The notes beneath the pieces are model-generated. The model was not told the DNA's origin, made no database searches, and was given only the letters and a program-made list of their open reading frames with translations. A program made the translations under genes and the position numbers. DNA of 33,638 nt from NCBI GenBank assembly GCA_041661305.1, contig JBAZUR010000002.1, positions 76,621-110,258 of the forward strand. The letters are read 5' to 3'. Below are positions 11,848 through 33,638 of the stretch, piece by piece. Positions within the stretch are counted from its first letter, which is position 1; every line of letters begins with the position of its first letter. This stretch comes from Minisyncoccota bacterium. GTDB lineage: Bacteria; Patescibacteriota; Minisyncoccia; Phycocordibacterales; VMEP01.

Positions 11848-13008
11848 ATGGAAACTGTTGTTTATAAAAATAAAATAATAAGCGTTGCCTTGTTTTTAGG
11901 GACTCTTTTTATTATGCAGTTTTTGTTTCCAGCACAAACCGCAAATGTGGCGAGAGCAGGTGTTGGAGACGCGCTTTCGGGGTACGCATGGAGCGAAAAC
12001 ATCGGCTGGATTTCTTTTAATTGTACCAACGAAAATACGTGTGCAACGTCTAATTATGGAGTTAATGTTTTAGATGGTAATTTTTCGGGGTACGCATGGA
12101 GCGAAAACATCGGCTGGATTTCTTTTAATAGTGCTGATGTTTCAGGGTGTCCTTCCTCTCCATGTTCCCCAGTAATTAATCTTTCCACTGGTTTGGTTTC
12201 AGGATGGGCGAAGGCTCTCTCGGCGAGTGGTGGTTGGGACGGCTGGATAAAATTATCTGGAACAGCTACAAACGGTAGTCCTTATGGGGTATCTTTTTCC
12301 GGTACCTCAGCGTCTGGTTATTCGTGGGGGTCTGATGTTATTGGCTGGATTTCATGGAGTGGTAGTGGTTACGGCGTAACTAGTTTAGTTGATCCATTAA
12401 ACGAAGCGCCAACTACGACAATCACAAGTCCAGCGATTTCGATTACAATACCCGAAAATCAATCACAGCAATTTATTGGCACAGCCACTGATCCTAATGA
12501 CGGGGATACTATTTTGGCGTACGAATGGAGAATTGGTAATTGTAGTACTGGAGCCCCGGTTATCGGTAATGCTATTAATTTTGATTATGCTTTTGCTGAT
12601 GACGGTGTATACACTGTTTATTTTAGGGCACAAGATAATAAAGGGGCGTGGTCAACTGATTGTCCTTCAAGAATAATAACCGTTACTGTACGTGAACCAA
12701 TAAACGGAGTTTGTGGTTCGGCAAATGGAGTGCCAACCCAAAAAAAACCAACATCTAATCTTTGTAATACGGTCGGGTTGCCAGGACCCACAGTGCTACC
12801 AACAAATATTAATATTTTGCCAGAAGGCGGTACACCATCTTCATGGACATGGACTTGTGCTGGTGAATATAACGGTGCGAACGCCTCCTGTAGTTCAGTA
12901 AATGGTTCAACGGGAACTTCTTGTGGTGATGGAAAATGTCAGCCATCTAAAGGAGAAAGCCCAGCAACTTGTCGTGCTGATTGCAGAGTCAAGTTTATTG
13001 AGTTTTAA
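11848..13008 (+). CDS. Secreted/surface protein with GYAWSENIGWISF repeats, PKD/Ig-like domain and Cys-rich C-terminus
   Basis: Hydrophobic N-terminal signal segment; four SGYAW..GWI-type repeats; NEAP...F.GTATDP...Y.W...GVYTVYFRAQD PKD-like segment; INGVCGSANG and CGDGKC motifs typical of Parcubacteria surface proteins. Confidence 0.8.
   Translation: METVVYKNKIISVALFLGTLFIMQFLFPAQTANVARAGVGDALSGYAWSENIGWISFNCTNENTCATSNYGVNVLDGNFSGYAWSENIGWISFNSADVSGCPSSPCSPVINLSTGLVSGWAKALSASGGWDGWIKLSGTATNGSPYGVSFSGTSASGYSWGSDVIGWISWSGSGYGVTSLVDPLNEAPTTTITSPAISITIPENQSQQFIGTATDPNDGDTILAYEWRIGNCSTGAPVIGNAINFDYAFADDGVYTVYFRAQDNKGAWSTDCPSRIITVTVREPINGVCGSANGVPTQKKPTSNLCNTVGLPGPTVLPTNINILPEGGTPSSWTWTCAGEYNGANASCSSVNGSTGTSCGDGKCQPSKGESPATCRADCRVKFIEF
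11975..12129 (+). repeat. Exact 47-bp direct repeat (11975-12021 and 12083-12129)
   Basis: tttcggggtacgcatggagcgaaaacatcggctggatttcttttaat occurs twice, 108 bp apart, with no mismatch. Confidence 0.95.
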
Positions 13009-13648: not shown

Positions 13649-14416
13649 ATGTATAAAAAATTACTAAACGCCCTCATGTTTTCTTTTTTAGCTCTTGCTC
13701 TATCTTTCGGAGTTTCTTACGTCTCTGCGTGGACAGCGCCAACGCAATCTCCACCAAACGGAAATACACCACCGCCTATCAACACCAGCGCAACAACTCA
13801 AAACAAAGCAGGTAATTTCACTGCACCAAATCTCATCGATATTAGCTCCACAGCCCAATCAAAATCTGGAGTATTAAGTGTTGGAGGGCTCACATTACCA
13901 GCCGGAGGAATTATTGATTCAGGTGGTTCCACTGGAGATTATGGAGCAGCTACGATTAGGGGGACAAAAAATGGTTGGGGCGGAGCTAATTTTAGGGATT
14001 CGTCGAATAATAATTTGGGCACATTAATGATGCATTCTAGTTATTCTGGATTCTATAATGCTTCTCAAAATAATTGGAGGTGGTATGCGACCGAAGGTGG
14101 TAACACCTATCAACCAGGATATGTGCAGGCTAGTGATGTATATGCTGGCCGTATGTTTGCTAGTAATTATGTGCAGGCTGGTTATGTGTATGCTAGCGAT
14201 GTATATGCTGGTGGGAGGTGGATGAGCAATATAGTTAGCGATACTGGTCCAGATTCAGGAACTTTATGTGGTTGGTATAGCGATGCAAGTGCTGCGTATG
14301 GATATCCGAATTCAACATGTAAAGGTTATTCCCCGGTCAGCGGTTGTCCTCCTGGGTACACGAGACAATCTGCTTTAACTCACAGTTGGTGGAACTATTA
14401 CTGTACAAAAGATTAG
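13649..14416 (+). CDS. Secreted pilus-tip/fibre-like protein
   Basis: Signal segment, AWTAPTQSPPNGNTPPPINTS motif, YVQASDVYAG pentapeptide repeats, Cys-bridged C-terminal CGW...CKG..P..GCPPGY...YCTK domain resembling shufflon PilV tips. Confidence 0.65.
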   Translation: MYKKLLNALMFSFLALALSFGVSYVSAWTAPTQSPPNGNTPPPINTSATTQNKAGNFTAPNLIDISSTAQSKSGVLSVGGLTLPAGGIIDSGGSTGDYGAATIRGTKNGWGGANFRDSSNNNLGTLMMHSSYSGFYNASQNNWRWYATEGGNTYQPGYVQASDVYAGRMFASNYVQAGYVYASDVYAGGRWMSNIVSDTGPDSGTLCGWYSDASAAYGYPNSTCKGYSPVSGCPPGYTRQSALTHSWWNYYCTKD

Positions 14417-14482: not shown

Positions 14483-17230
14483 ATGGTTTTAAACTTTAAA
14501 GCTGAAGGGCATGAAAAATTCACGACTCCTCAAGAGGAAATTGATTTTTTGCGTGAGCGTTTAGCACACCGAGAGCAAACTGCATCAAGAGAGAAAGAGG
14601 CACCAACAAGAGACATCCCAAAAGAAATAATTAAAGAATATTCCGAAAAACCGGTCGCCGAAGTTCTGCATCCAGAGAAAGTTATGCCAGAACAAGAAGT
14701 TGATCGCATTGTTCTAGAGCTAAAGCCAGAACAACACGATAAACAAATGGAGGAGCTTCTCGGTATCCTTATCGATAAAGGAGCCAGAAATGCTATTTCT
14801 GTCGTGGAGAAGATGGACAACCCTCACCTCACGGATGATTTTCACAGAATACTCGTTCAGTATGTTAAAAGTGCTGGAAAAATTTCAGATTTAGAAAAAG
14901 ATAAACAAGTCTGGAAGGCTATTCATATGCGTCTTTATGAAATTATCCTTCCAGAAGCAACCGGCGAGAACCAAACAAGAGGATTTAAGGAGCTCGTGAC
15001 GACAATGGAACAGTTTTACGCTGGAATGCTCTCTGTTTCAGACGGCCGTGACAATTTTCCTGGTAGAAATTATTTTACACTTGAGATTGCTTTATCAAAT
15101 TGGAGTAGCGAGATAGTTTTTTATGCTTCGGTTTCAGAAGACAAGAGCGAACTTTTAGAAAAACAGTTACTTGGACTATACCCAGAGGCTCGTATTAGAG
15201 AGGTAAAGGACGATTACAATATTTTTAATGAAAATGGCGCTTCTGTTGGGGCGTATGGTGCATTTACAAAAAGTCAGGTCTTCCCAATAAAAACATATGC
15301 AGAATTTGATCACGACCCACTACCAGTTATCCTTAATGTTTTTTCAAAACTTAAAAAGGAGGGGGAAGGTGCAGCGATTCAGTTTTCTATCTCCCCTGTT
15401 GGCGACTACTTTCTAAAAAAATATGGCGGAGTGCTTGATCAATTAAAGCGGGGAATGTCGGCAAAAGACGCGACAGATGTTCCGTATACGGTCGGACAAG
15501 AAGTCGGCAAGTTTGCAAAAGAGCTTTTTATGGGAGTTCCGTCTCCTAAAAAAATTGACGGTAAAGACGTTATTGACGATGAAGCAATAAAACATGTTAC
15601 AGAAAAAATAAGTAGTACGATTGTTAACACAAACATTAGAGTAATTGCCTCAGCTGAAACTACCGCACGAGCCGAAGAAATTTTGGGTGGTCTACAGTCC
15701 GCCTTCAATCAGTTCACAGATACACGTGGTAACGGAATAGAGTTTAAGCAATTAAAGCGTCATGATTTATTAAAACTTTTTCAAGAATTTTCTTATAGGC
15801 TTTTTTCCCAAGACTATCCATTGCCACTAAATTTAAAAGAGCTTACGACTATGTTTCATTTCCCCGAGGAAGTTTCTTCGGCTCCACAGTTGAAACAAGC
15901 CCGTTCGGCGACAGCGCCAGCTCCGCTTGATGCTCCAACCGAAGGAACACTTCTTGGTATAAACAAACACCGCGGAGAGGAGAGGAAAATTTTTGTTACT
16001 AGTGAAGATAGGATGCGCCACTTCTATGTTATTGGTCAAACTGGTACGGGTAAGACAGTAATCTTGAAGAATATGATTATTCAAGATATCAAGGCTGGAC
16101 ACGGTGTATGTATGATTGATCCGCACGGGACAGATATCGAAGATATTTTAGGAAGTATTCCTAGAGAGAGAGAAAAAGACGTTATTTATTTTGATCCAGC
16201 ACACACCGAGCGAGTGATGGGGCTTAATATGCTTGAATATGACCTTGAGAGACCGGAACAGAAGACCTTTGTAGTTAACGAGCTTATTTCTATTTTTAAC
16301 AAATTGTTTGATATGAAGGTGGCTGGTGGACCCGCCTTTGAACAATATTTTAGAAACTCAGCTCTTTTGGTGATGGAGCACCCAGAATCTGGTAATACAC
16401 TTCTTGATATCGTGCGTGTTCTAGCTGATAAATCTTTTAGAGATATGAAATTGTCGTACTGTAACAATCCAGTAGTCACGCAGTTTTGGGCCAATGCAAT
16501 TAAGACTAGTGGGGAACAATCGCTTGCAAACTTTGTTCCGTATATTTCAAGTAAGTTTGACCCATTTTTATCGAACGATATTATGCGTCCGGTTATCGCT
16601 CAAGAAAAATCATCTTTTAATTTCAGACAGATAATGGATGAGCGAAAAATCCTTTTAGTTAACCTGTCAAAAGGAAGACTAGGGGATTTGAATGCGCACC
16701 TGATTGGCCTTATTTTAGTCGGGAAAATCCTTATCGCAGCTCTTTCTCGTGTGGATGCTCTCGGAGAAAAATTAGCCGATTTTTATCTATATGTGGACGA
16801 GTTCCAGAATATTACTACTGATTCTATTTCCACAATTCTTTCTGAGGCGAGAAAATATAGACTATCTCTTAATCTTGCCCACCAGTTCATTGGACAGCTT
16901 GATGAAAAAACAAAAAACGCTGTTTTTGGAAACGTTGGTTCAATGGCACTGTTCCGTGTCGGTAGTGAAGATGCAGAATTTTTAGAGAAACAACTTTCAC
17001 CAATTTTTTCCGCGCGAGATCTAATGAACCTAGACAATTACAACGCATATATGAAGATGTTGATGAAGGGGCAACCGGCAAGAGCCTTTAATATTGAAAC
17101 AATTGCGCCAAGAGCGGGGGACTCATTTGCTGCGGCGAGAATCAAAGAAGCCTCGTATCAAAAATTTGGCGCTCCTCGTGCAGAAGTAGAGGATCATATT
17201 GTTCAAAAGTATCGTCAAACGGGAATCTAG
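14483..17230 (+). CDS. VirD4/TraG/VirB4-like P-loop ATPase (HerA/FtsK superfamily, DUF87-like)
   Basis: RMRHFYVIGQTGTGKT Walker A, YLYVDEFQN Walker B, EARKYRLSLNLAHQ motif; no obvious TM anchor. Confidence 0.88.
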   Translation: MVLNFKAEGHEKFTTPQEEIDFLRERLAHREQTASREKEAPTRDIPKEIIKEYSEKPVAEVLHPEKVMPEQEVDRIVLELKPEQHDKQMEELLGILIDKGARNAISVVEKMDNPHLTDDFHRILVQYVKSAGKISDLEKDKQVWKAIHMRLYEIILPEATGENQTRGFKELVTTMEQFYAGMLSVSDGRDNFPGRNYFTLEIALSNWSSEIVFYASVSEDKSELLEKQLLGLYPEARIREVKDDYNIFNENGASVGAYGAFTKSQVFPIKTYAEFDHDPLPVILNVFSKLKKEGEGAAIQFSISPVGDYFLKKYGGVLDQLKRGMSAKDATDVPYTVGQEVGKFAKELFMGVPSPKKIDGKDVIDDEAIKHVTEKISSTIVNTNIRVIASAETTARAEEILGGLQSAFNQFTDTRGNGIEFKQLKRHDLLKLFQEFSYRLFSQDYPLPLNLKELTTMFHFPEEVSSAPQLKQARSATAPAPLDAPTEGTLLGINKHRGEERKIFVTSEDRMRHFYVIGQTGTGKTVILKNMIIQDIKAGHGVCMIDPHGTDIEDILGSIPREREKDVIYFDPAHTERVMGLNMLEYDLERPEQKTFVVNELISIFNKLFDMKVAGGPAFEQYFRNSALLVMEHPESGNTLLDIVRVLADKSFRDMKLSYCNNPVVTQFWANAIKTSGEQSLANFVPYISSKFDPFLSNDIMRPVIAQEKSSFNFRQIMDERKILLVNLSKGRLGDLNAHLIGLILVGKILIAALSRVDALGEKLADFYLYVDEFQNITTDSISTILSEARKYRLSLNLAHQFIGQLDEKTKNAVFGNVGSMALFRVGSEDAEFLEKQLSPIFSARDLMNLDNYNAYMKMLMKGQPARAFNIETIAPRAGDSFAAARIKEASYQKFGAPRAEVEDHIVQKYRQTGI

Positions 17231-21406: not shown

Positions 21407-21498
21407 GCTTATACTCATAAAATACACGCATAAAATTCTGCTGAATTTTTGCTCTGCTCGGCCCGTCGGCCTGTGCAAGATATTTTATGGGTATAAGC
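21407..21498 (+). repeat. Palindromic element copy E (56-nt core in 18-bp inverted arms)
   Basis: Core 21425-21480 matches the reverse complement of 26487-26542 at 43/56 nt; arms gcttatactcataaaata / tattttatgggtataagc. Confidence 0.85.
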
Positions 21499-21525
21499 GG
21501 ATAATAAAATGCCTAAAACAAGATT

Positions 21526-21601
21526 TGGTGGACCATACCGGATTCGAACCGGTCGCCTCGTCCATGCCATGGACGCGCTCTACCAAATGAGCTAATGGCC
21601 C
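21526..21601 (-). tRNA. tRNA-Ala(GGC)
   Basis: 76-nt cloverleaf GGGCCAT...ATGGTCCACCA; G3:U70, anticodon loop ATGGCAT (A32-U38), encoded CCA. Confidence 0.97.
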
Positions 21602-21690
21602 TAAAACATTTGTTCGAGCGAACAAATTCAAACGAAATTGTTTTAGCCCTAAAAATATTCGAACACTATATCAAACCGACACCTCTCAAT

Positions 21691-21736
21691 ACAAACAAAA
21701 ACAACCTCGACTTTCGAAGAGGTTGTTTTTGTTTGT
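21691..21736. terminator. Terminator after the DUF5679 gene
   Basis: Perfect 18-bp inverted repeat acaaacaaaaacaacctc / gaggttgtttttgtttgt. Confidence 0.8.
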
Positions 21737-21747
21737 TACTTTTAAGA

Positions 21748-21906
21748 CTATTTCTTTGAAGGAAGGATTTTGTACATTCCAGTTCCACACACTGTACACG
21801 TACCTTTTGCGGCAGGACGGCCAGGTTTGATTTCAACCTCTTGAACATCCTTCATTTCACGCTTTTCCTTACACTTCACACAATACCCAATTATTTTTTC
21901 ATCCAT
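21748..21906 (-). CDS. DUF5679-like zinc-ribbon small protein (52 aa)
   Basis: YCVKCKEKREMKD...GRPAAKGTCTVCGTGMYKI pattern; ATG 21906 lies 8 nt after TAGACT -10. Confidence 0.8.
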   Translation of the reverse strand: MDEKIIGYCVKCKEKREMKDVQEVEIKPGRPAAKGTCTVCGTGMYKILPSKK

Positions 21907-22058
21907 AGTTATATAGTCTAGCGTATTTTGAGAGAAATGCACTAGTTGGGTATAAATAGAGGGGATTTCTCAGTTTGACCTTTGTTTAATTATGATGTAG
22001 TACTATGTGCAGTTGTTTCAAATTTTTCAACCAGGTTTGATAAAAAGAGGAAAACAAA

Positions 22059-23477
22059 ATGTACCTTTCAACTCGCGGTAAGGCACCGGCAGTCAATTTC
22101 GCAGACACAGTGCTTGCAGGATTGGCGCCAGACGGAGGGCTATATGTTCCGGAGAAGTTTTTCCGGGCCAATGAGGGAGATTTCCGGCTACACGCCAGCG
22201 GTTCGTATCAGGATGTCGCTCGTTTCGTGATGGAGCAATTTGCTCCCGACATCAATAGGAGCAAACTTTGGGGGGCAATAGCGAAAGCTTATACCCCGGA
22301 GGTCTTCAAGAACGTCGCTGGTCCAGGTTTCGAAGTGGCAAGTGATATTGTTCCGGTGCGCGACCTTGGGCGAGAGATGTATCTTGCCAGGCTGAGCAAT
22401 GGGCCGACTTTGGCGTTCAAGGATTTGCCTCTGCAGTTGCTCGGGCATCTTTTCGAAGTTGTTCTCGGGCGCAACAAGAAGCTCAACCTTCTCGGCGCGA
22501 CCTCGGGGGACACCGGCTCGGCGGCTATTCACGCAATGCTTGGGAGAAAAGGCATCCGTGTCTTTATGCTCTCTCCGCATGGCAAGATGAGCCAGTTTCA
22601 GGCTGCTCAGATTTTGAGCGTCAACGATCCGGCAGTTCACAACATTTCGATTCGCGGGTCGTTCGACGATTGCCAAGATGTGGTCAAGGCGGTCAATGCC
22701 GATGCCGGTTTCAAAGAGATGTACAGCATCGGTGCCGTGAACTCAATCAACTGGGCGCGTATTGCAGCTCAAGTCCCTTACTACTTCTGGGTTTACTCCC
22801 GGGTTCGTGGTGGTGATGGTGGAGTAATCGACGTTGCTGTCCCGACAGGGAACTACGGCAATATTTACGCGGCGTGGGTAGCGAAAATGATGGGGGTGCC
22901 GATTCGTCGGCTGATTCTCGCGACCAACGAAAATGACGTGCTTCACGAGTTTTTCACGACGGGCATTTACAAGCCCCGAGAGAAGACACTCGTGACGTCG
23001 AGTCCTTCGATGGACATCACCAAGGCATCGAATTTCGAACGATTCATCTACGATGTCTTTGGTGGCGATGCGGACAAGGTTTCGAAGTTGTGGAAAGCGC
23101 TCGACAAGTCGGGGCAGTTTGATTTGTCGCACAGGATATCGGCCATTCGGGCGAAGTCCGGCATCACTTCTTTTGCCACGCGTCAGAGGCAGGCGAACGA
23201 AGCAATCTTGCGTATCTTCAATAGCACTGGGGTTATCATCGACCCGCACACTGCGGTCGCGATGTATGCTGCAATCGGCATGAAACATCCGGGAGTGCCG
23301 ATGGTTGTGATGGAAACAGCGCAACCGTGCAAGTTTGATGACGCAGTAAAGAAGGCGCTCGGCCTCACAGCGAAACCGCCGGCCGGCATGGAAGGGCTTT
23401 TGTCCGCTGAAAAGTTCTTCACGCTGATGGATCCCGATCCCGAAAAGGTGAAGGATCTAATCCGTGCCTACGCGTAA
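22059..23477 (+). CDS. thrC: Threonine synthase (long, class II type)
   Basis: YLSTRG, GLAPDGGLYVP, GPTLAFKD (PLP Lys), ATSGDTG, FDDCQD, NSINWARI, VPTGNYG, SPSMDI, IDPHTA; AGAGG SD; GC-richer than flanks. Confidence 0.95.
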   Translation: MYLSTRGKAPAVNFADTVLAGLAPDGGLYVPEKFFRANEGDFRLHASGSYQDVARFVMEQFAPDINRSKLWGAIAKAYTPEVFKNVAGPGFEVASDIVPVRDLGREMYLARLSNGPTLAFKDLPLQLLGHLFEVVLGRNKKLNLLGATSGDTGSAAIHAMLGRKGIRVFMLSPHGKMSQFQAAQILSVNDPAVHNISIRGSFDDCQDVVKAVNADAGFKEMYSIGAVNSINWARIAAQVPYYFWVYSRVRGGDGGVIDVAVPTGNYGNIYAAWVAKMMGVPIRRLILATNENDVLHEFFTTGIYKPREKTLVTSSPSMDITKASNFERFIYDVFGGDADKVSKLWKALDKSGQFDLSHRISAIRAKSGITSFATRQRQANEAILRIFNSTGVIIDPHTAVAMYAAIGMKHPGVPMVVMETAQPCKFDDAVKKALGLTAKPPAGMEGLLSAEKFFTLMDPDPEKVKDLIRAYA

Positions 23478-23492
23478 TTTTTGCAGGATTTC

Positions 23493-23520
23493 AAACCTGG
23501 CCCTCGGGCCAGGTTTTTTT
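23493..23520 (+). terminator. thrC terminator
   Basis: aaacctggccc-tc-gggccaggttt followed by a T run. Confidence 0.85.
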
Positions 23521-23540
23521 GTTTGGGGAATATATAAAAT

Positions 23541-23570
23541 AAAAAAGATGGCACTTTGCGGTGCCATCTT
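23541..23570 (-). terminator. Terminator of the 179-aa gene
   Basis: aagatggcac / gtgccatctt 10-bp stem with an A run on the left (U tail on minus strand). Confidence 0.75.
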
Positions 23571-23582
23571 CTGCTTTGCTTG

Positions 23583-24122
23583 CTACCGCCCTCGCGGTTT
23601 TTCGAGCGGGATGATATTCGGGTTCCTCGCTTCGGCGATGTCGCCCGTGTCGTTGACGAGTAACATTGACGAACCCTTCATTGCAAAAATCATTTCGTAG
23701 ACAGTCGGCACTCGCTCTACGCGTCCTTTGCCGTCCTCACCTGGCACCCAGAACCCAGCTCGGTCTGCGCCAGTTTCTGCGCAATCCCAGCGGAGACAGC
23801 CGACAAGTTGCAACGACGGTTCTCTCTCGTAGACAACGGCATATTCGGGAATCTTGAAGTCGGCACTGACCGGTGTGTAGAGGGTAATCGGCTTGCCGAT
23901 GAAAATCGGATTGCCACACCATGCACAGCGGATTGCCATCTTGGCGATGCAGTCGAGACAGTAGTCCACTGAACCCTCTTCATTTATCGGCATTTTGGTT
24001 GTGATGGTGTGTCCGAAGGCCGATACTTTGCCCGTGCGCTTTGTGTGATGGCCACATATCGTGGCCATGTAACGACGCAGGCTCAGTCGAGCAAGATAAA
24101 GATACAAGTCGTATCGTTTCAT
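23583..24122 (-). CDS. Hypothetical Cys/His-rich protein (179 aa)
   Basis: AAGGAG SD, own terminator; CGH, YCLDC, CAWCGNPI and CLRWDC motifs suggest metal binding. Confidence 0.75.
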   Translation of the reverse strand: MKRYDLYLYLARLSLRRYMATICGHHTKRTGKVSAFGHTITTKMPINEEGSVDYCLDCIAKMAIRCAWCGNPIFIGKPITLYTPVSADFKIPEYAVVYEREPSLQLVGCLRWDCAETGADRAGFWVPGEDGKGRVERVPTVYEMIFAMKGSSMLLVNDTGDIAEARNPNIIPLEKPRGR

Positions 24123-24235
24123 TCCATTCTCCTTTTCTATTTTGTGAGCGAATCTGGATTATTTCTAACACCTTATGAAGAGTTTTACAATTGGGGGGTG
24201 CTTGTGTTTTTGGGGGAGAGGGGTAGAGTTTAGGG

Positions 24236-24436
24236 ATGGAGAAATTAAAATATCTTTTATTTCTTGCAGGTGTGGGATTCTTGTACGGGATAGCTTCGTT
24301 AGCTTTTCTGGCTATGTTTCTGCAATGGACCTTGGAAGTAGATATTACCAAGTTTGATAAAATATACCGTCTTCTATTTCTTGTTTGGTCTGGGTGGGTA
24401 ATAGGATTGCATTTTTATTTTAAAAAAGAAAAATAA
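24236..24436 (+). CDS. Small membrane protein (66 aa, 2 TM)
   Basis: Two hydrophobic segments, basic termini; no family recognised. Confidence 0.55.
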   Translation: MEKLKYLLFLAGVGFLYGIASLAFLAMFLQWTLEVDITKFDKIYRLLFLVWSGWVIGLHFYFKKEK

Positions 24437-24484
24437 AAAGATAATTAGTTTAGTAGATTGTTGGGGTGGAGATAACAAAGAGGT

Positions 24485-24694
24485 ATGGAGAAAATTTTTA
24501 ATTTTAAATATATTTTAATAATAACACTCATCCTTTTTGTCTATAGCTGGCTTTTCTTTAGGTACGAATTTTTATCTATCCAAATTACAGATAGTAATCA
24601 GTTAATAGAGAGGTGTAATCGTATCACTGGTAATTGTGAAGCATCCACTCCGCTTACCAAGGAAGGGTTAAATTCTTTATTAGGTATAAAATAA
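24485..24694 (+). CDS. Small membrane-anchored protein (69 aa)
   Basis: AAGAGG just upstream, one TM, RCNRITGNC pair of Cys. Confidence 0.55.
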   Translation: MEKIFNFKYILIITLILFVYSWLFFRYEFLSIQITDSNQLIERCNRITGNCEASTPLTKEGLNSLLGIK

Positions 24695-24722
24695 TAAGAC
24701 GTCCTTGGATTGGGGATTTTGT

Positions 24723-25016
24723 ATGTTAGAAAAAGATTTTAGAAAAGATAAAAAAATTGGTATTTTAAAATATTTATATATAGCAGTTCTTTACGTTGGT
24801 GGCCTTACTTTGTTGATTACGATAGTTATTTTCCTGCTCTTGCTTCCTGGGCTTTGGTGTTGGTTTTGGGAAGGACTAATAGGTGTTCCGCAGGCATGTC
24901 TTTCCTATGAACCACAAATTTACCCATTTATGTTCTTTGCGTTTTTCGTGTTTATGTTGTGGGGCGGTGGAAAACTTCTTTTCAAAATCATCTCCGTACT
25001 TTTTGAAAATCGTTAA
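24723..25016 (+). CDS. Small membrane protein (2 TM, C..C loop)
   Basis: Two long hydrophobic segments; followed by hairpin 25024-25048. Confidence 0.55.
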   Translation: MLEKDFRKDKKIGILKYLYIAVLYVGGLTLLITIVIFLLLLPGLWCWFWEGLIGVPQACLSYEPQIYPFMFFAFFVFMLWGGGKLLFKIISVLFENR

Positions 25017-25023
25017 TAAGCGA

Positions 25024-25048
25024 AAATCCAAGGGATGCCCTTGGATTT
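25024..25048 (+). terminator. Hairpin after the small membrane genes
   Basis: aaatccaaggg-atg-cccttggattt 11-bp stem. Confidence 0.55.
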
Positions 25049-25057
25049 GGTAGTTTG

Positions 25058-25203
25058 ATGGGGGTGTCGGTCACGAGTATTTTTTATACCGTCGTATAAA
25101 AAATCTCTCGACCCCAGCTCGCCATTTTGTCTGCTGACAAAATAGGGCTGCGCTTTTCAATTCCCCCGCGCGAGCAAAGCAGTTTGCTCGCTCATCTCCA
25201 CCA
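25058..25203 (+). repeat. Palindromic element copy A with inverted copy of the tmRNA 3' end
   Basis: tcggtcacg...cgacccc core; ttcaattccccc[25 nt]catctccacca (25156-25203) mirrors the tmRNA T arm and acceptor end. Confidence 0.85.
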
Positions 25204-25244
25204 TAAAACAAAAGCGCCCCAAATTGGGACGCTAATGTTTTTAA

Positions 25245-25644
25245 TGGTGGAGATGGGGGGAATTGAACCCCCGTGCAGATGATTTTCAGGTGTGAGTCTA
25301 CGAGCTTAGTTTGTTTTTTGGTTTTCAACATGAAAGGTTTAAAGCAAACAAAATCCTTTCACACATATCCTCTATTTTTCAGTTAGTACTCCCGAAGATT
25401 GAAATACGCTTAGTCCGGAAATATAACGCCCGTTCACCTCTACCAGACTGCAAAGTGACGAACGACCTTCTACTTAAGTTTAGTTAAGCGAAAGCGACGG
25501 CGAAACTGTTGGCCTTAAAATAAGGAGAAACAGTTAGGCCCTGTGCATTTTTGTTTGCACTTATGTTTTGTGACGGTTTAACAAGTCATCACAGCTTGGC
25601 TCGCACACACGAGAATAGATCAGCTGTCTAAGCAAATCATCCCC
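25245..25644 (-). ncRNA. ssrA: tmRNA (400 nt), tag ANKNAQGLTVSPYFKANSFAVAFA*
   Basis: 5' GGGGATG pairs with CATCTCC-ACCA (G3:U70), T loop TTCAATT; resume GCA after ATAAGT at 25558, stop at 25484; directly downstream of smpB. Confidence 0.95.
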
Positions 25645-25714
25645 GTATTTAGATTAGTCATTAGCTTGTTAGGCGCTAGGGGGTACAGGTAAGAAAAAAA
25701 TTCCCCTACACCGA

Positions 25715-26164
25715 CTAAAGACTGTTTTTCAAAGTTCTACTTATTTCACGCATGTCGTCTCGTTTTTTTAAAGTCTCGCGTTTATCAAATTTCTTTTTAC
25801 CGCGAGCGATTCCGAGCGACACTTTAATCTTACCTTTTTTATTATACATCGAAAGTGGCACCATTGTCAACTTCTTCTCCTTCTCCATATGAGAGAGTTC
25901 CAATATTTCTTTTTTGGTCAAAAGAAGTTTTCTCGTGCGAAGCGGGTCGTAGCCCCCAGGCATATTTTGAGCTTGATATGGAGGGATATTTGAACCAAGC
26001 AAAAAAACTTCTCCTCCGCGGACGACAGCATAAGCTCCCTCAAGCGAGCCCTGACCACCTTTAATAGACTTAACCTCAGGGCCGAGAAGCTCAATACCGG
26101 CTTCAAAGGTTTCTGTGATTTCGTAATTAAAGCGTGCTTTTTTGTTTTCGATAAAGGAAGTCAC
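25715..26164 (-). CDS. smpB: SsrA-binding protein SmpB
   Basis: ENKKARFNY, EAGIEL.G.EVKS, RTRKLLL, TMVPL.MY, GKKKFDKRE motifs. Confidence 0.98.
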   Translation of the reverse strand: MTSFIENKKARFNYEITETFEAGIELLGPEVKSIKGGQGSLEGAYAVVRGGEVFLLGSNIPPYQAQNMPGGYDPLRTRKLLLTKKEILELSHMEKEKKLTMVPLSMYNKKGKIKVSLGIARGKKKFDKRETLKKRDDMREISRTLKNSL

Positions 26165-26238
26165 CGGGTAATTTTAACATGAGTTATAGGTTTTTTACTT
26201 TTCCTCTTTAAAAACACGATAAAATTCTGTTGATAAGA

Positions 26239-26400
26239 GTCGCGCGTCAATGGACGGTCGCGCGACATGATTTCGTCTAAATCATATACTCGCATTACGC
26301 ATAATTTCTTGCTAAAAATTTGCGCGACCCCGACTCGGCTCGCCAGCCTCCGCCTCTCAATTGCTTCACATGTCGCAATTGAGCATCGCGCTCCGTAATG
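26239..26400 (+). repeat. Palindromic element copy B plus adjoining hairpins
   Basis: aatttct-TGCT-aaaaatt hairpin then cgacccc as in copies A and D; 7-bp terminal IR cattacg/cgtaatg (26293-26400); extra stems at 26239-26266, 26267-26285 and ctcaattgc/gcaattgag. Confidence 0.75.
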
Positions 26401-26469
26401 TTTTTAAAAAGGAAAAGTCTAGATTTTTAAGAAAAATCAAAAAGATTAGTTTTTGGGTCTAAAATACCG

Positions 26470-26559
26470 GAGGTACACCCGAAAGACCTTGCACAGCGCG
26501 ACGGCGCGAGCAGAGAAAATTTTTAGCAAAAAATTATTCGTGTCTTTCGGGTGTACCTC
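26470..26559 (-). repeat. Palindromic element copy C (56-nt core in perfect 18-bp inverted arms)
   Basis: Arms gaggtacacccgaaagac / gtctttcgggtgtacctc; core homologous to copy E; 16-nt exact match to 33455-33470. Confidence 0.88.
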
Positions 26560-30203: not shown

Positions 30204-30240
30204 TCATCCGTGGCTGATTGAAAATATGCGTCCGTCCTTA

Positions 30241-30278
30241 CCCGCCCGAATGGAACGAGCCCGCTCGGTACGGGCGGG
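30241..30278. mobile_element. 38-nt miniature hairpin insertion at TTA^G
   Basis: cccgcccg...cgggcggg terminal inverted repeat; absent from the intact tRNA copy. Confidence 0.8.
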
Positions 30279-30291
30279 GCTCAGTTGGTTA

Positions 30292-30327
30292 CCTGCCCGA
30301 ACGACTGGAATCGTTCAGTCGGGCGGG
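30292..30327. mobile_element. 36-nt miniature hairpin insertion at TTA^G
   Basis: cctgcccga...tcgggcggg terminal inverted repeat; same target context as the 30241 insertion. Confidence 0.8.
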
Positions 30328-30422
30328 GAGCACAGAGCTTATAAATGGCAACGAGGAATAAGTGGAAGTTTACTTACATTTAGGCCGAGTGAACCGTTTA
30401 TATGAATTGAAAATTTCATAGT

Positions 30423-30496
30423 CCGTCCTTAGCTCAGTTGGTTAGAGCACAGAGCTTATACCTCTGCGGTCCCTGGTTCGAATCCAGGAGGACGGA
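30423..30496 (+). tRNA. tRNA-Ile(UAU), CCA not encoded
   Basis: Cloverleaf CCGTCCT/AGGACGG, D stem GCTC/GAGC, anticodon arm CAGAG-CTTATAC-CTCTG, T arm CCTGG-TTCGAAT-CCAGG, A73. Confidence 0.93.
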
Positions 30497-30515
30497 CTAT
30501 GAAATAAATCATATC

Positions 30516-30539
30516 CCTCTGCGGTCCCTGGTTCGAATC
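30516..30539 (+). pseudogene. 3' fragment (from C38 through the T loop) of tRNA-Ile(UAU)
   Basis: cctctgcggtccctggttcgaatc identical to 30461-30484. Confidence 0.92.
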
Positions 30540-30553
30540 AGAAAAAAACAACC

Positions 30554-33398: not shown

Positions 33399-33525
33399 CG
33401 GAGACGGTGGTTCGGTCACGGATATTTTTCTGCTGAAAAATTCCGCGACCCCGCCTCGCGCCGTCGCGCTCCGGCCTTCGAATCCCACACGCGAGCAAAG
33501 CAGTTTGCTCGCTCGTCTCCGTTTT
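33399..33525 (+). repeat. Palindromic element copy D with inverted and direct copies of the tRNA-Ser 3' end
   Basis: cggagacggtgg (33399-33410) repeats 33542-33553; ttcgaatcccac[25 nt]cgtctccgtttt (33477-33525) mirrors the tRNA end; TGCT and CGTC hairpins in between. Confidence 0.88.
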
Positions 33526-33541
33526 TCACGGAGCTTCAAAA

Positions 33542-33628
33542 CGGAGACGGTGGGATTCGAACCCACGGTCCCGATTAAGGGACGCCTCGTTAGCAGTGAG
33601 GTGCTTTCGACCACTCAGCCACGTCTCC
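33542..33628 (-). tRNA. tRNA-Ser(GCU), CCA not encoded
   Basis: GGAGACG/CGTCTCC acceptor, G73, anticodon loop CTGCTAA, long variable arm, T loop TTCGAAT; one A31-C39 mismatch. Confidence 0.95.
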
Positions 33629-33638
33629 ATATATTGTA

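Follow-up and report, generated by a model that had tools for sequence, protein, structure and literature searches.

Relation to Described Systems

Bacterial genomes hold several kinds of short, non-coding, multi-copy intergenic DNA that fold into hairpins, differ from strain to strain and have no enzyme of their own, among them repetitive extragenic palindromes (REPs) with their REPIN arrangements and transposable elements of the miniature inverted-repeat kind (MITEs). The element described here, from a 33,638-nt stretch of a Minisyncoccota genome (contig JBAZUR010000002.1, positions 76,621 to 110,258; the whole stretch is called the window below), shares all of these features. An earlier note on this DNA had drawn attention to two copies, A and B, as a mobile-looking core wrapped in different inverted arms at each site, and had remarked that this design is unlike that of REPs and MITEs. 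The remark was apt: REPs and MITEs conserve their terminal or palindromic sequence, whereas here it is an internal three-way junction that is conserved, the stem being variable. A and B share no arm sequence, no transposase lies near the copies, and no REP-associated tyrosine transposase (RAYT) gene was seen in the window or the locus set examined; neither a parent insertion sequence nor a target-site duplication was seen. We consider it probable, though well short of certain, that A and B are old, diverged members of a non-autonomous, structured, dispersed repeat family specific to the Patescibacteria (Candidate Phyla Radiation, CPR), with arms that are inherited.

The attC sites of integrons offer another comparison. 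In both cases structure is conserved and sequence is variable, the sites lie beside gene ends in a fixed orientation and border variable cargo, and the recombinase on which they would rely is encoded elsewhere. The conservation, however, is the reverse of that in attC, with the centre conserved and the stem free; the R''/R' core sites (RYYYAAC ... GTTRRRY) are absent, the stem ends vary freely, and the neighborhoods contain no integron integrase or attI. The folded attP of CTX phage and other users of Xer resembles our second type of element (type 2, below) in its succession of target copy, inverted copy, spacer and second target copy, in its tandem arrays, and in having no integrase on the element. 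Here, in contrast, the target is the 3' end of a tRNA or transfer-messenger RNA (tmRNA) gene rather than dif, the elements are approximately 100-200 nt long, and a single-stranded route is something that we infer. Islands that target tRNA or tmRNA genes by means of tyrosine integrases share with type 2 a direct repeat beginning in the T-loop, downstream cargo that is variable and of defence type, and a break of homology at the tRNA end; they differ in that type 2 has no integrase, has an extra inverted attachment copy and a conserved folded core, and includes some units of less than 200 nt. No reverse transcriptase adjoins any copy, as one would in a retron with its msr/msd. The tandem interspaced guide RNA (TIGR) arrays of CPR bacteria also consist of hairpin RNA units with variable stems (PMC12045711). 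Those arrays are tandem, lie next to a Tas protein and have box C/D-like motifs and dual spacers in internal loops (PMC12045711), whereas the copies here are dispersed, form a three-way junction and have no Tas neighbor. A further report (PMC12455944) leaves tRNAs and integrases unmentioned.

A Conserved Core in Variable Arms

The two copies of the first type and their parts are located as follows:

21407..21498, minus strand: copy A, type 1 (95.8 bits with covariance model R1)
21407-21424 and 21481-21498: arms of copy A (helix P1), pairing at 17 of 18 positions
21425-21480: three-way-junction core of copy A
26470..26559, plus strand: copy B, type 1 (100.1 bits with model R1)
26470-26487 and 26542-26559: arms of copy B, pairing at 18 of 18 positions
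26488-26541: core of copy B

A position-by-position comparison of the cores reproduces the 13 differences counted in the earlier note. Its coordinates for the core of copy A stand, while those for copy B (26487-26542) overlap each arm by one base and are corrected above. Twelve of the 13 differences form six compensatory pairs: the five already described, all of which hold (three in the 7-bp stem with loop TGCT, two in the 4-bp stem with loop CGTC), and a sixth that had been missed, at positions 5 and 27, where C-G is replaced by A-T and the AT stem is lengthened. The arms are indeed near-perfect inverted repeats at each site and unrelated between the two, and neither set has a further match in the window at three or fewer mismatches (chance expectation 0.02-0.04). 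A 28-nt core motif common to A and B is found at those two window sites only, with 0 expected.

Whichever strand is folded, both copies form a three-way junction; the z-scores range from -5.6 to -8.1, and none of 200 shuffles is as good. A and B lack a U-tract, and the whole hairpins are not called by an intrinsic terminator scan, whose single call near B is a weak 5-bp hairpin on the minus strand (26482-26467) within B's left arm. Copy A lies 27 nt downstream of a tRNA-Ala gene, in the same direction, and upstream of a consensus infC promoter; copy B lies upstream of a consensus ftsH promoter.

Distribution, Anatomy and Covariation of the Family

We scanned one genome per species with a degenerate core pattern and found approximately 30 loci in Patescibacteria (Saccharibacteria, Paceibacterota, Nomurabacteria, Parcubacteria); the other matches were chance matches in high-GC genomes. 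A second pattern gave at least 119 loci in metagenomes. Both patterns fixed some columns, so that only the unfixed columns, which include the stems, are used as evidence of conservation. Loci outside the window are cited below by our numbers (L001, etc.). There is no matching family for the element in Rfam 15, where A and E meet only chance miRNA-type hairpins (10-16 bits) even at E ≤ 10, and a literature check of limited reach found no published description. Apparently the family is uncatalogued, a large set of folded, multi-copy intergenic elements in ultra-small groundwater bacteria.

All members have the same plan: a three-way junction with nearly invariant bases is closed by a long helix, P1, made of the two arms, and carries an AU-rich hairpin with loop YAGCAR and a short GC hairpin, usually with loop GACG, set in a conserved internal-loop motif. 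Two types are recognized, with the consensus given on the strand that runs with the upstream tRNA. Type 1, which includes A and B, reads arm-CCUUGCRCAG-(GNNC GACG GNNC)-GAGCAGAGCAA-(AU hairpin, loop YAGCAR)-UAUGCGUGC-arm. Type 2, which includes copy E, has both type-1 hairpins, a longer P2 (GUCGCGNA / UNCGUGAC) and a GCC/GGC helix around P3.

The note's claim that the structure is under selection is borne out by covariation across the family in both types. Among 13 type-1 sequences, 91.9% of the cells are paired, compared with 68.6% in shuffles, and 25 of 34 pairs have changed on both sides; among 16 type-2 sequences, the figures are 98.3% against 81.1%, with 14 of 22 pairs changed on both sides. 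In neither type does any of 500 shuffles reach the observed value, and sliding the partners lowers pairing to 33-54% (type 1) and 34-51% (type 2). One G.U pair is present in all 16 type-2 sequences, and at a second pair G-C and G.U occur seven times each. On the opposite strand these kept G.U pairs would read as A.C mismatches, so that type 2 folds on the strand that runs with the upstream tRNA.

The elements can be dense, with up to five in 13 kb, and the window itself holds exactly five, as the earlier note had counted: covariance model R2 calls E (33406-33481), C (26285-26360), F (25061-25160), B and A. By a crude open reading frame (ORF) call, a gene that reads into the 3' arm of type 1 has its stop codon no more than 20 nt away in 22 of 53 cases; on the 5' side the count is five of 53. 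This suits an element associated with gene ends, in the manner of a terminator or of attC; A and B, upstream of promoters, are exceptions. Some members other than A and B are flanked by A-runs or T-runs. No protein family recurs as a neighbor across 27 loci, and none of the copies checked has a recombinase, transposase or reverse transcriptase beside it.

Several candidate identities were tried and rejected. Signal recognition particle RNA, suggested by a GAGCAG-type motif beside a tetraloop, gives no Rfam match at E ≤ 10, and the element recurs several times in 12 kb and has a second hairpin. The known self-cleaving ribozymes (hammerhead, twister, twister-sister, pistol, hatchet) give no Rfam match, and their core motifs are absent by reading. 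A dif/Xer-like site in the TTATGCGTGC junction fails because in type 2 this base belongs to a stem and is variable; a K-turn in the P3 internal loop fails because the type-1 sequence (RCA / GA) is off consensus. The three IMG/VR matches that might point to a viral origin are chance matches to high-GC contigs.

As a separate observation, several short-read contigs of relatives (L130-L134) start or end inside the element upstream of infC, which is consistent with assembly breaks at a multi-copy repeat.

Are the Type-1 Arms Inherited or Made on Site?

The earlier note proposed that the local target is duplicated in inverted form on insertion, and looked to empty sites for exactly one arm. In six relative loci (L003, L135, L136, L137, L138, L139), whose SmpB is 89-100% identical to that of the window, the gap between ftsH and smpB is just 67-90 nt and contains none of B, C and D (C and D form a composite described below) and neither B arm. 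A type-1 copy with perfect 17-bp arms lies between the PHP gene and ftsH in L137; at the same site in L003, L135, L136 and L138 the element is absent and neither arm is present. Because the empty alleles carry neither arm, target duplication is refuted for both of these sites. Nor does any type-1 copy have a direct copy of its right arm upstream; apparent upstream copies of the A and B right arms, seen by eye, are not significant (p 0.23-0.27).

The arms instead recur together with the element. Copy A has orthologs in L133 and L191 in the same flank upstream of infC, and between A and L133 both partners have changed in three pairs of P1 and three of P3, with no change in the junction. L160, L230 and L238 also have arms homologous to those of A, and arms homologous to those of B are found at L216:5231 and L185:6834; those of the L137 element recur in L185, L141, L216 and L174. 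Two loci of one genome (L016, L033) have in common a 144-nt unit that includes the arms, and L232 and L221 have a 90-nt element that is 100% identical, arms included, within a homologous stretch of 108 nt (96%); the contexts are otherwise unrelated, save for a short 80%-identity stretch that is apparently another partial element. In two different genera (L032, L036) a copy is kept between the RNase H and ComEC genes, with arms that have diverged but still pair. Over all pairs the mean arm identity is 0.55, the background level. To judge from these alignments, the arms in A and B form the helix that closes the element, and would differ as members of different, old subfamilies.

The idea of an on-site inverted copy thus fails for the A and B arms, which were its basis; across the family it survives as a partial echo, in the tRNA-derived stems of type 2 and in some outer repeats. 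Many copies have stem extensions of 11-26 bp past the modelled arms, and in L057 the left flank is the complement of the sequence beyond the right arm. The outer inverted repeats of the L232 and L221 elements differ by locus (AAAATTCAGAA/TTCTGAATTTT and AAAAAATAAGAAAA/TTTTCTTATTTTTT) and are either palindromes that were there beforehand or local copies.

Type-2 Elements at tRNA and tmRNA Genes

The remaining copies in the window and the RNA genes next to them are:

33399..33520, minus strand: copy E, type 2 (96.8 bits with R2)
33541..33629, minus strand: tRNA-Ser(GCU), whose 3' end recurs direct and inverted in copy E
25056..25205, minus strand: copy F, type-2 variant (44.8 bits with R2), downstream of the tmRNA terminator
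25245..25644, minus strand: tmRNA gene, whose 3' end recurs direct and inverted in copy F
21526..21601, minus strand: tRNA-Ala(GGC), directly upstream of copy A
26198..26417, minus strand: composite C/D, in which one outer arm pair encloses copy C and a degenerate copy D
26400-26417 and 26198-26215: outer arms of C/D (minus-strand CTTTTCCTTTTTAAAAAC / GTTTTTAAAGAGGAAAAG)
26285-26360: model match of copy C, a type-2-like variant (63 bits with R2)
approximately 26213-26275: degenerate copy D
26418..26469: spacer between C/D and B, matching the two ends of an approximately 230-aa gene in L185

A directly repeated tRNA 3' end commonly marks site-specific integration, and type 2 shows this feature repeatedly. 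Among 43 strong type-2 matches, 29 have a tRNA or tmRNA gene 14-250 nt upstream in the same direction; most of the others have too little upstream sequence to judge. In 16 of these 29 the right arm repeats approximately 15 nt or more of the adjacent tRNA 3' end. This direct repeat runs from the T-loop to CCA, and in some copies extends along the trailer for another 13-19 nt or more. The left arm is complementary to the T-loop and T-stem of the element's own tRNA and tracks its variants (TTCAATT, TTCGAGT, TTCAAGT). Ordinary attachment-site duplication explains the direct repeat; the inverted copy added to it recalls, by analogy, folded attachment sites such as CTX phage attP. The repetition is a property of type 2 only, and not of A and B (p ~0.25). 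No integrase gene is present within the type-2 elements checked. Tandem type-2 units occur in L050 and L164.

Copy E begins with CGGAGACG, the complement of the acceptor 3' strand of tRNA-Ser, followed by a hairpin (AGCGAGCAAACTGCTTTGCTCGCG), the complement of the T-loop and T-stem (GTGGGATTCGAA), the core and a degenerate direct copy of the tRNA-Ser 3' end (ACCGAACCACCGTCTCCG); its repeat of the tRNA end has p < 0.001. The stem of copy F consists of tmRNA 3' end sequence (TGGTGGAGATG ... GGGGGAATTGAA ... CCCCCATC), its left arm includes the complement of the genome-encoded CCA of the tmRNA, and its two hairpins have exchanged loops in comparison with E. A hairpin that differs between strains breaks the left arm exactly at the junction of acceptor and T-stem in E, F and L008 and in the tmRNA-linked copies of the relatives L001, L135, L137, L138 and L139. 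We rejected tRNA-primed reverse transcription with the left arm as primer-binding site: the complement of CCA is found only where CCA is genome-encoded (tmRNA) and is absent at tRNA-Ser.

The hairpin AGCGAGCAAACTGCTTTGCTCGC breaks the left arms of both E and F (window 25164-25188, 33485-33509). L001 has a hairpin with a AGCGAGCAAACTGCTTTGCTCGC-type loop and another stem at 2400-2430, adjoining a 40-nt duplication of the tRNA-Ser promoter and 5' end. The left-arm hairpin of E and F may be a second small hairpin family.

Variable DNA beside the Elements

The region beyond the tmRNA gene shows what type-2 copies border:

24198..25244: variable island of 1047 nt from the tmRNA gene to a conserved 179-aa gene, with other cargo in relatives

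In L001, 97% identical to the window, this island is 226 nt long, and homology between the two ends at the 3' end of the tmRNA. Every relative has a type-2 copy after the tmRNA, different from but equivalent to F, and then different cargo: a reverse transcriptase-protease gene (L139, L140), a Panacea-domain gene (L138) or small ORFs (window). The reverse transcriptase-protease gene lies approximately 100 nt beyond the type-2 copy, as cargo, and other relatives are without it. A comparable case is 'Parcubacteria group bacterium LiPW_30' (LiPW_30), whose IF3 and SmpB are approximately 89-90% identical or more to those of the window and which has a 1.2-kb insertion exactly after tRNA-Ala, in the place of window copy A. 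In L117 a TIR and SLATT gene pair, a defence-type cargo, lies between two type-2 copies that have in common a 178-nt repeat starting inside the core. Gains and swaps of elements are seen between strains 90-97% identical, and the impression of mobility in the earlier note holds in that the element is dispersed, multi-copy and polymorphic between close strains.

The window pair of B and C/D provides a related example. The outer arms of C/D have homologs at L185:5977 and in L141, and in L185 a gene of approximately 230 aa is flanked by two elements homologous to window B and C/D. Because the window spacer matches both ends of that gene, the B/C/D block looks, in the alignment, like a deletion derivative of an element-gene-element unit.

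Three smaller observations concern the same region. The reverse transcriptase-protease gene (L139 4969-6567, L140 1977-3575) encodes a 532-aa reverse transcriptase fused to a trypsin-like protease, and resembles reverse transcriptases of defence type. In the variable island, approximately 780 nt downstream of the tmRNA, 9 nt that copy the tmRNA 3' end (window 24466-24474, minus ATCTCCACC) may be the remnant of an old attachment site. An 89-aa GIY-YIG ORF (L135 10449-10718) lies between smpB and the tmRNA gene in LiPW_30 and L136; the window is without it.

Weighing the Explanations

In the reading that we prefer, the repeat would be mobilized or recombined in trans. Its arms would belong to the element and be inherited and moved together with the core, the stems changing by paired substitutions around a fixed junction. 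It would be a non-autonomous, dispersed and recombinogenic repeat whose copies are gained and lost among close strains and lie beside genes and variable cargo. We suppose that a factor whose gene lies elsewhere in the genome reads the fold as a single strand, of either RNA or DNA, and that intra-strand templated repair probably preserves the perfect pairing of the long stems. Type 2, sitting between a tRNA or tmRNA gene and variable DNA, would pair in its stem the tRNA-end direct repeat with the inverted copy, and that stem may mimic the tRNA attachment site during site-specific integration. Several observations weigh against this picture. Mobility is deduced from distribution and polymorphism, no mobilizing enzyme, transcript or excised form having been seen. 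The B/C/D block of the window replaced approximately 45 nt rather than inserting cleanly; L137 has, relative to the four empty alleles, 22 extra nt on the left and no clear duplication; and no target-site duplication is evident at either site. The locus-specific outer repeats of L232 and L221 are not explained by inheritance alone. The strand asymmetry of type 1 is weak (G.U against A.C, 20 to 11 in P1 and 5 to 7 in P2), and some type-1 copies at the same site in different genera fit a resident functional RNA gene equally well. Such an explanation, in which the copies are genes for non-coding RNA or RNA modules that act in cis (such as a small RNA that binds protein, a stabilizer of 3' ends or a terminator) and undergo ordinary duplication and loss, with P1 selected for pairing only, strikes us as plausible but on balance unlikely. 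It would account for junction and loop bases that are nearly invariant over phylum-level distances, for the strand-specific G.U pairs kept in type 2, for the bias of the 3' arm toward stop codons and the A- and T-runs of some copies, and for that orthologous copy in two genera; yet it sits poorly with an identical element in unrelated contexts, with gains and swaps between strains so closely related, with tandem and nested copies, and with systematic tRNA-end repeats, which point to recombination, and A and B are without the U-tract and are not called as terminators. It is not exclusive of our best explanation, with which it is compatible.

A somewhat less probable account makes the elements folded recombination sites in the manner of attC or CTX attP, type 2 being the tRNA landing site and type 1 the cassette ends, served by a tyrosine recombinase in trans. 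The order of tRNA end, spacer, inverted copy, core and direct copy, the start of the direct repeat in the T-loop, the tandem arrays, the variable and partly defence-type cargo after type-2 copies and the break of strain homology exactly at the tRNA or tmRNA 3' end all speak for it, as do the attC-like placement of type 1 near stop codons in a fixed orientation and the combination of conserved structure with variable stem sequence. Against this stand the lack of a recombinase near the copies checked, the missing attC core sites, conservation that runs opposite to that of attC, the housekeeping genes that neighbor many type-1 copies, and circular or single-stranded intermediates that are not in evidence. 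Both this and the resident-RNA account overlap with the reading that we prefer and remain live. More speculatively still, the family could be a new recombination module in which the junction caps and holds a target-mimicking stem (e.g., the tRNA T-loop region), so that a host recombinase inserts enzyme-free DNA by tRNA genes and gene ends, possibly as single strands imported by competence, and builds variable and defence islands, the outer stems being copied from the local flank. We find it quite improbable that a bare core inserts and, through template switching, primed synthesis or the action of an HUH enzyme, duplicates its local target in inverted form, as the earlier note had it. Type-2 stems do consist of the adjacent tRNA or tmRNA 3' end and its complement, tracking the T-loop variant; the CCA complement in the left arm of F, the complementary flank of L057, the stem extensions of many copies and the different outer repeats around the identical L232/L221 element are also what that model would produce. 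But empty alleles of the A/B type lack both arms, the arms are common to several loci and genomes, the right arm has no upstream direct copy, and the direct repeat of type 2 from T-loop to CCA is the signature of site-specific integration and not of fold-back synthesis.

Patescibacteria make up a large share of bacterial diversity, with tiny genomes, and are poorly understood. Because its structure is under strong selection, and its copies are many, turn over between strains and form borders of variable, partly defence-type DNA at tRNA and tmRNA genes, the family is a candidate handle on gene exchange and gene placement in these organisms. Should the family instead work as RNA, it would amount to an RNA class both widespread and unstudied. 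In annotation, models R1 and R2 would label hundreds of presently blank intergenic regions and explain the assembly breaks there.

Setting of the Window and Minor Observations

The source genome is of the groundwater Patescibacteria type, Parcubacteria/Paceibacterota-like, and exact matches to the window SmpB are groundwater metagenome contigs. The gene content is that of housekeeping (ribosomal protein operon, infC, thrC, smpB, ftsH, recG). The only features in the window that pass Rfam are three tRNAs and the tmRNA. As the earlier note had stated, the 33,638 nt contain no candidate enzyme: no recombinase, transposase or reverse transcriptase was found.

The third tRNA gene, tRNA-Ile (30423-30497), has the anticodon UAU, as it does in relatives L001, L135, L137 and L138 and in the unrelated L014, which suggests decoding of AUA without lysidine. 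Upstream of it (30233-30345) lies a degenerate copy of the tRNA 5' half, broken by two GC-rich hairpins of approximately 38 nt (CCYGCCCGAA...GGGCGGGG), and downstream (30516-30540) a partial copy of the segment from anticodon stem to T-loop. These flanking partial copies suggest repeated recombination at tRNA-Ile.

Between rplB and the next ribosomal protein gene there is a gap of approximately 840 nt (960-1797), unusual inside a ribosomal protein operon; it is relatively GC-rich, with no Pfam-checked gene, no Rfam match and weak ORFs only (e.g., 1221-1715). An ORF with a PKD domain contains a 50-nt direct repeat (11975-12132; 98% identity, 108 nt spacing), and the end of ORF 13649-14416 has tandem repeats of 15-48 nt (14120-14227). 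Finally, 14483-17230 encodes a 915-aa protein with VirD4/TraG-type coupling-protein domains (T4SS-DNA_transf, TraG-D_C), which is conserved in relatives and may have a bearing on DNA transfer or uptake.

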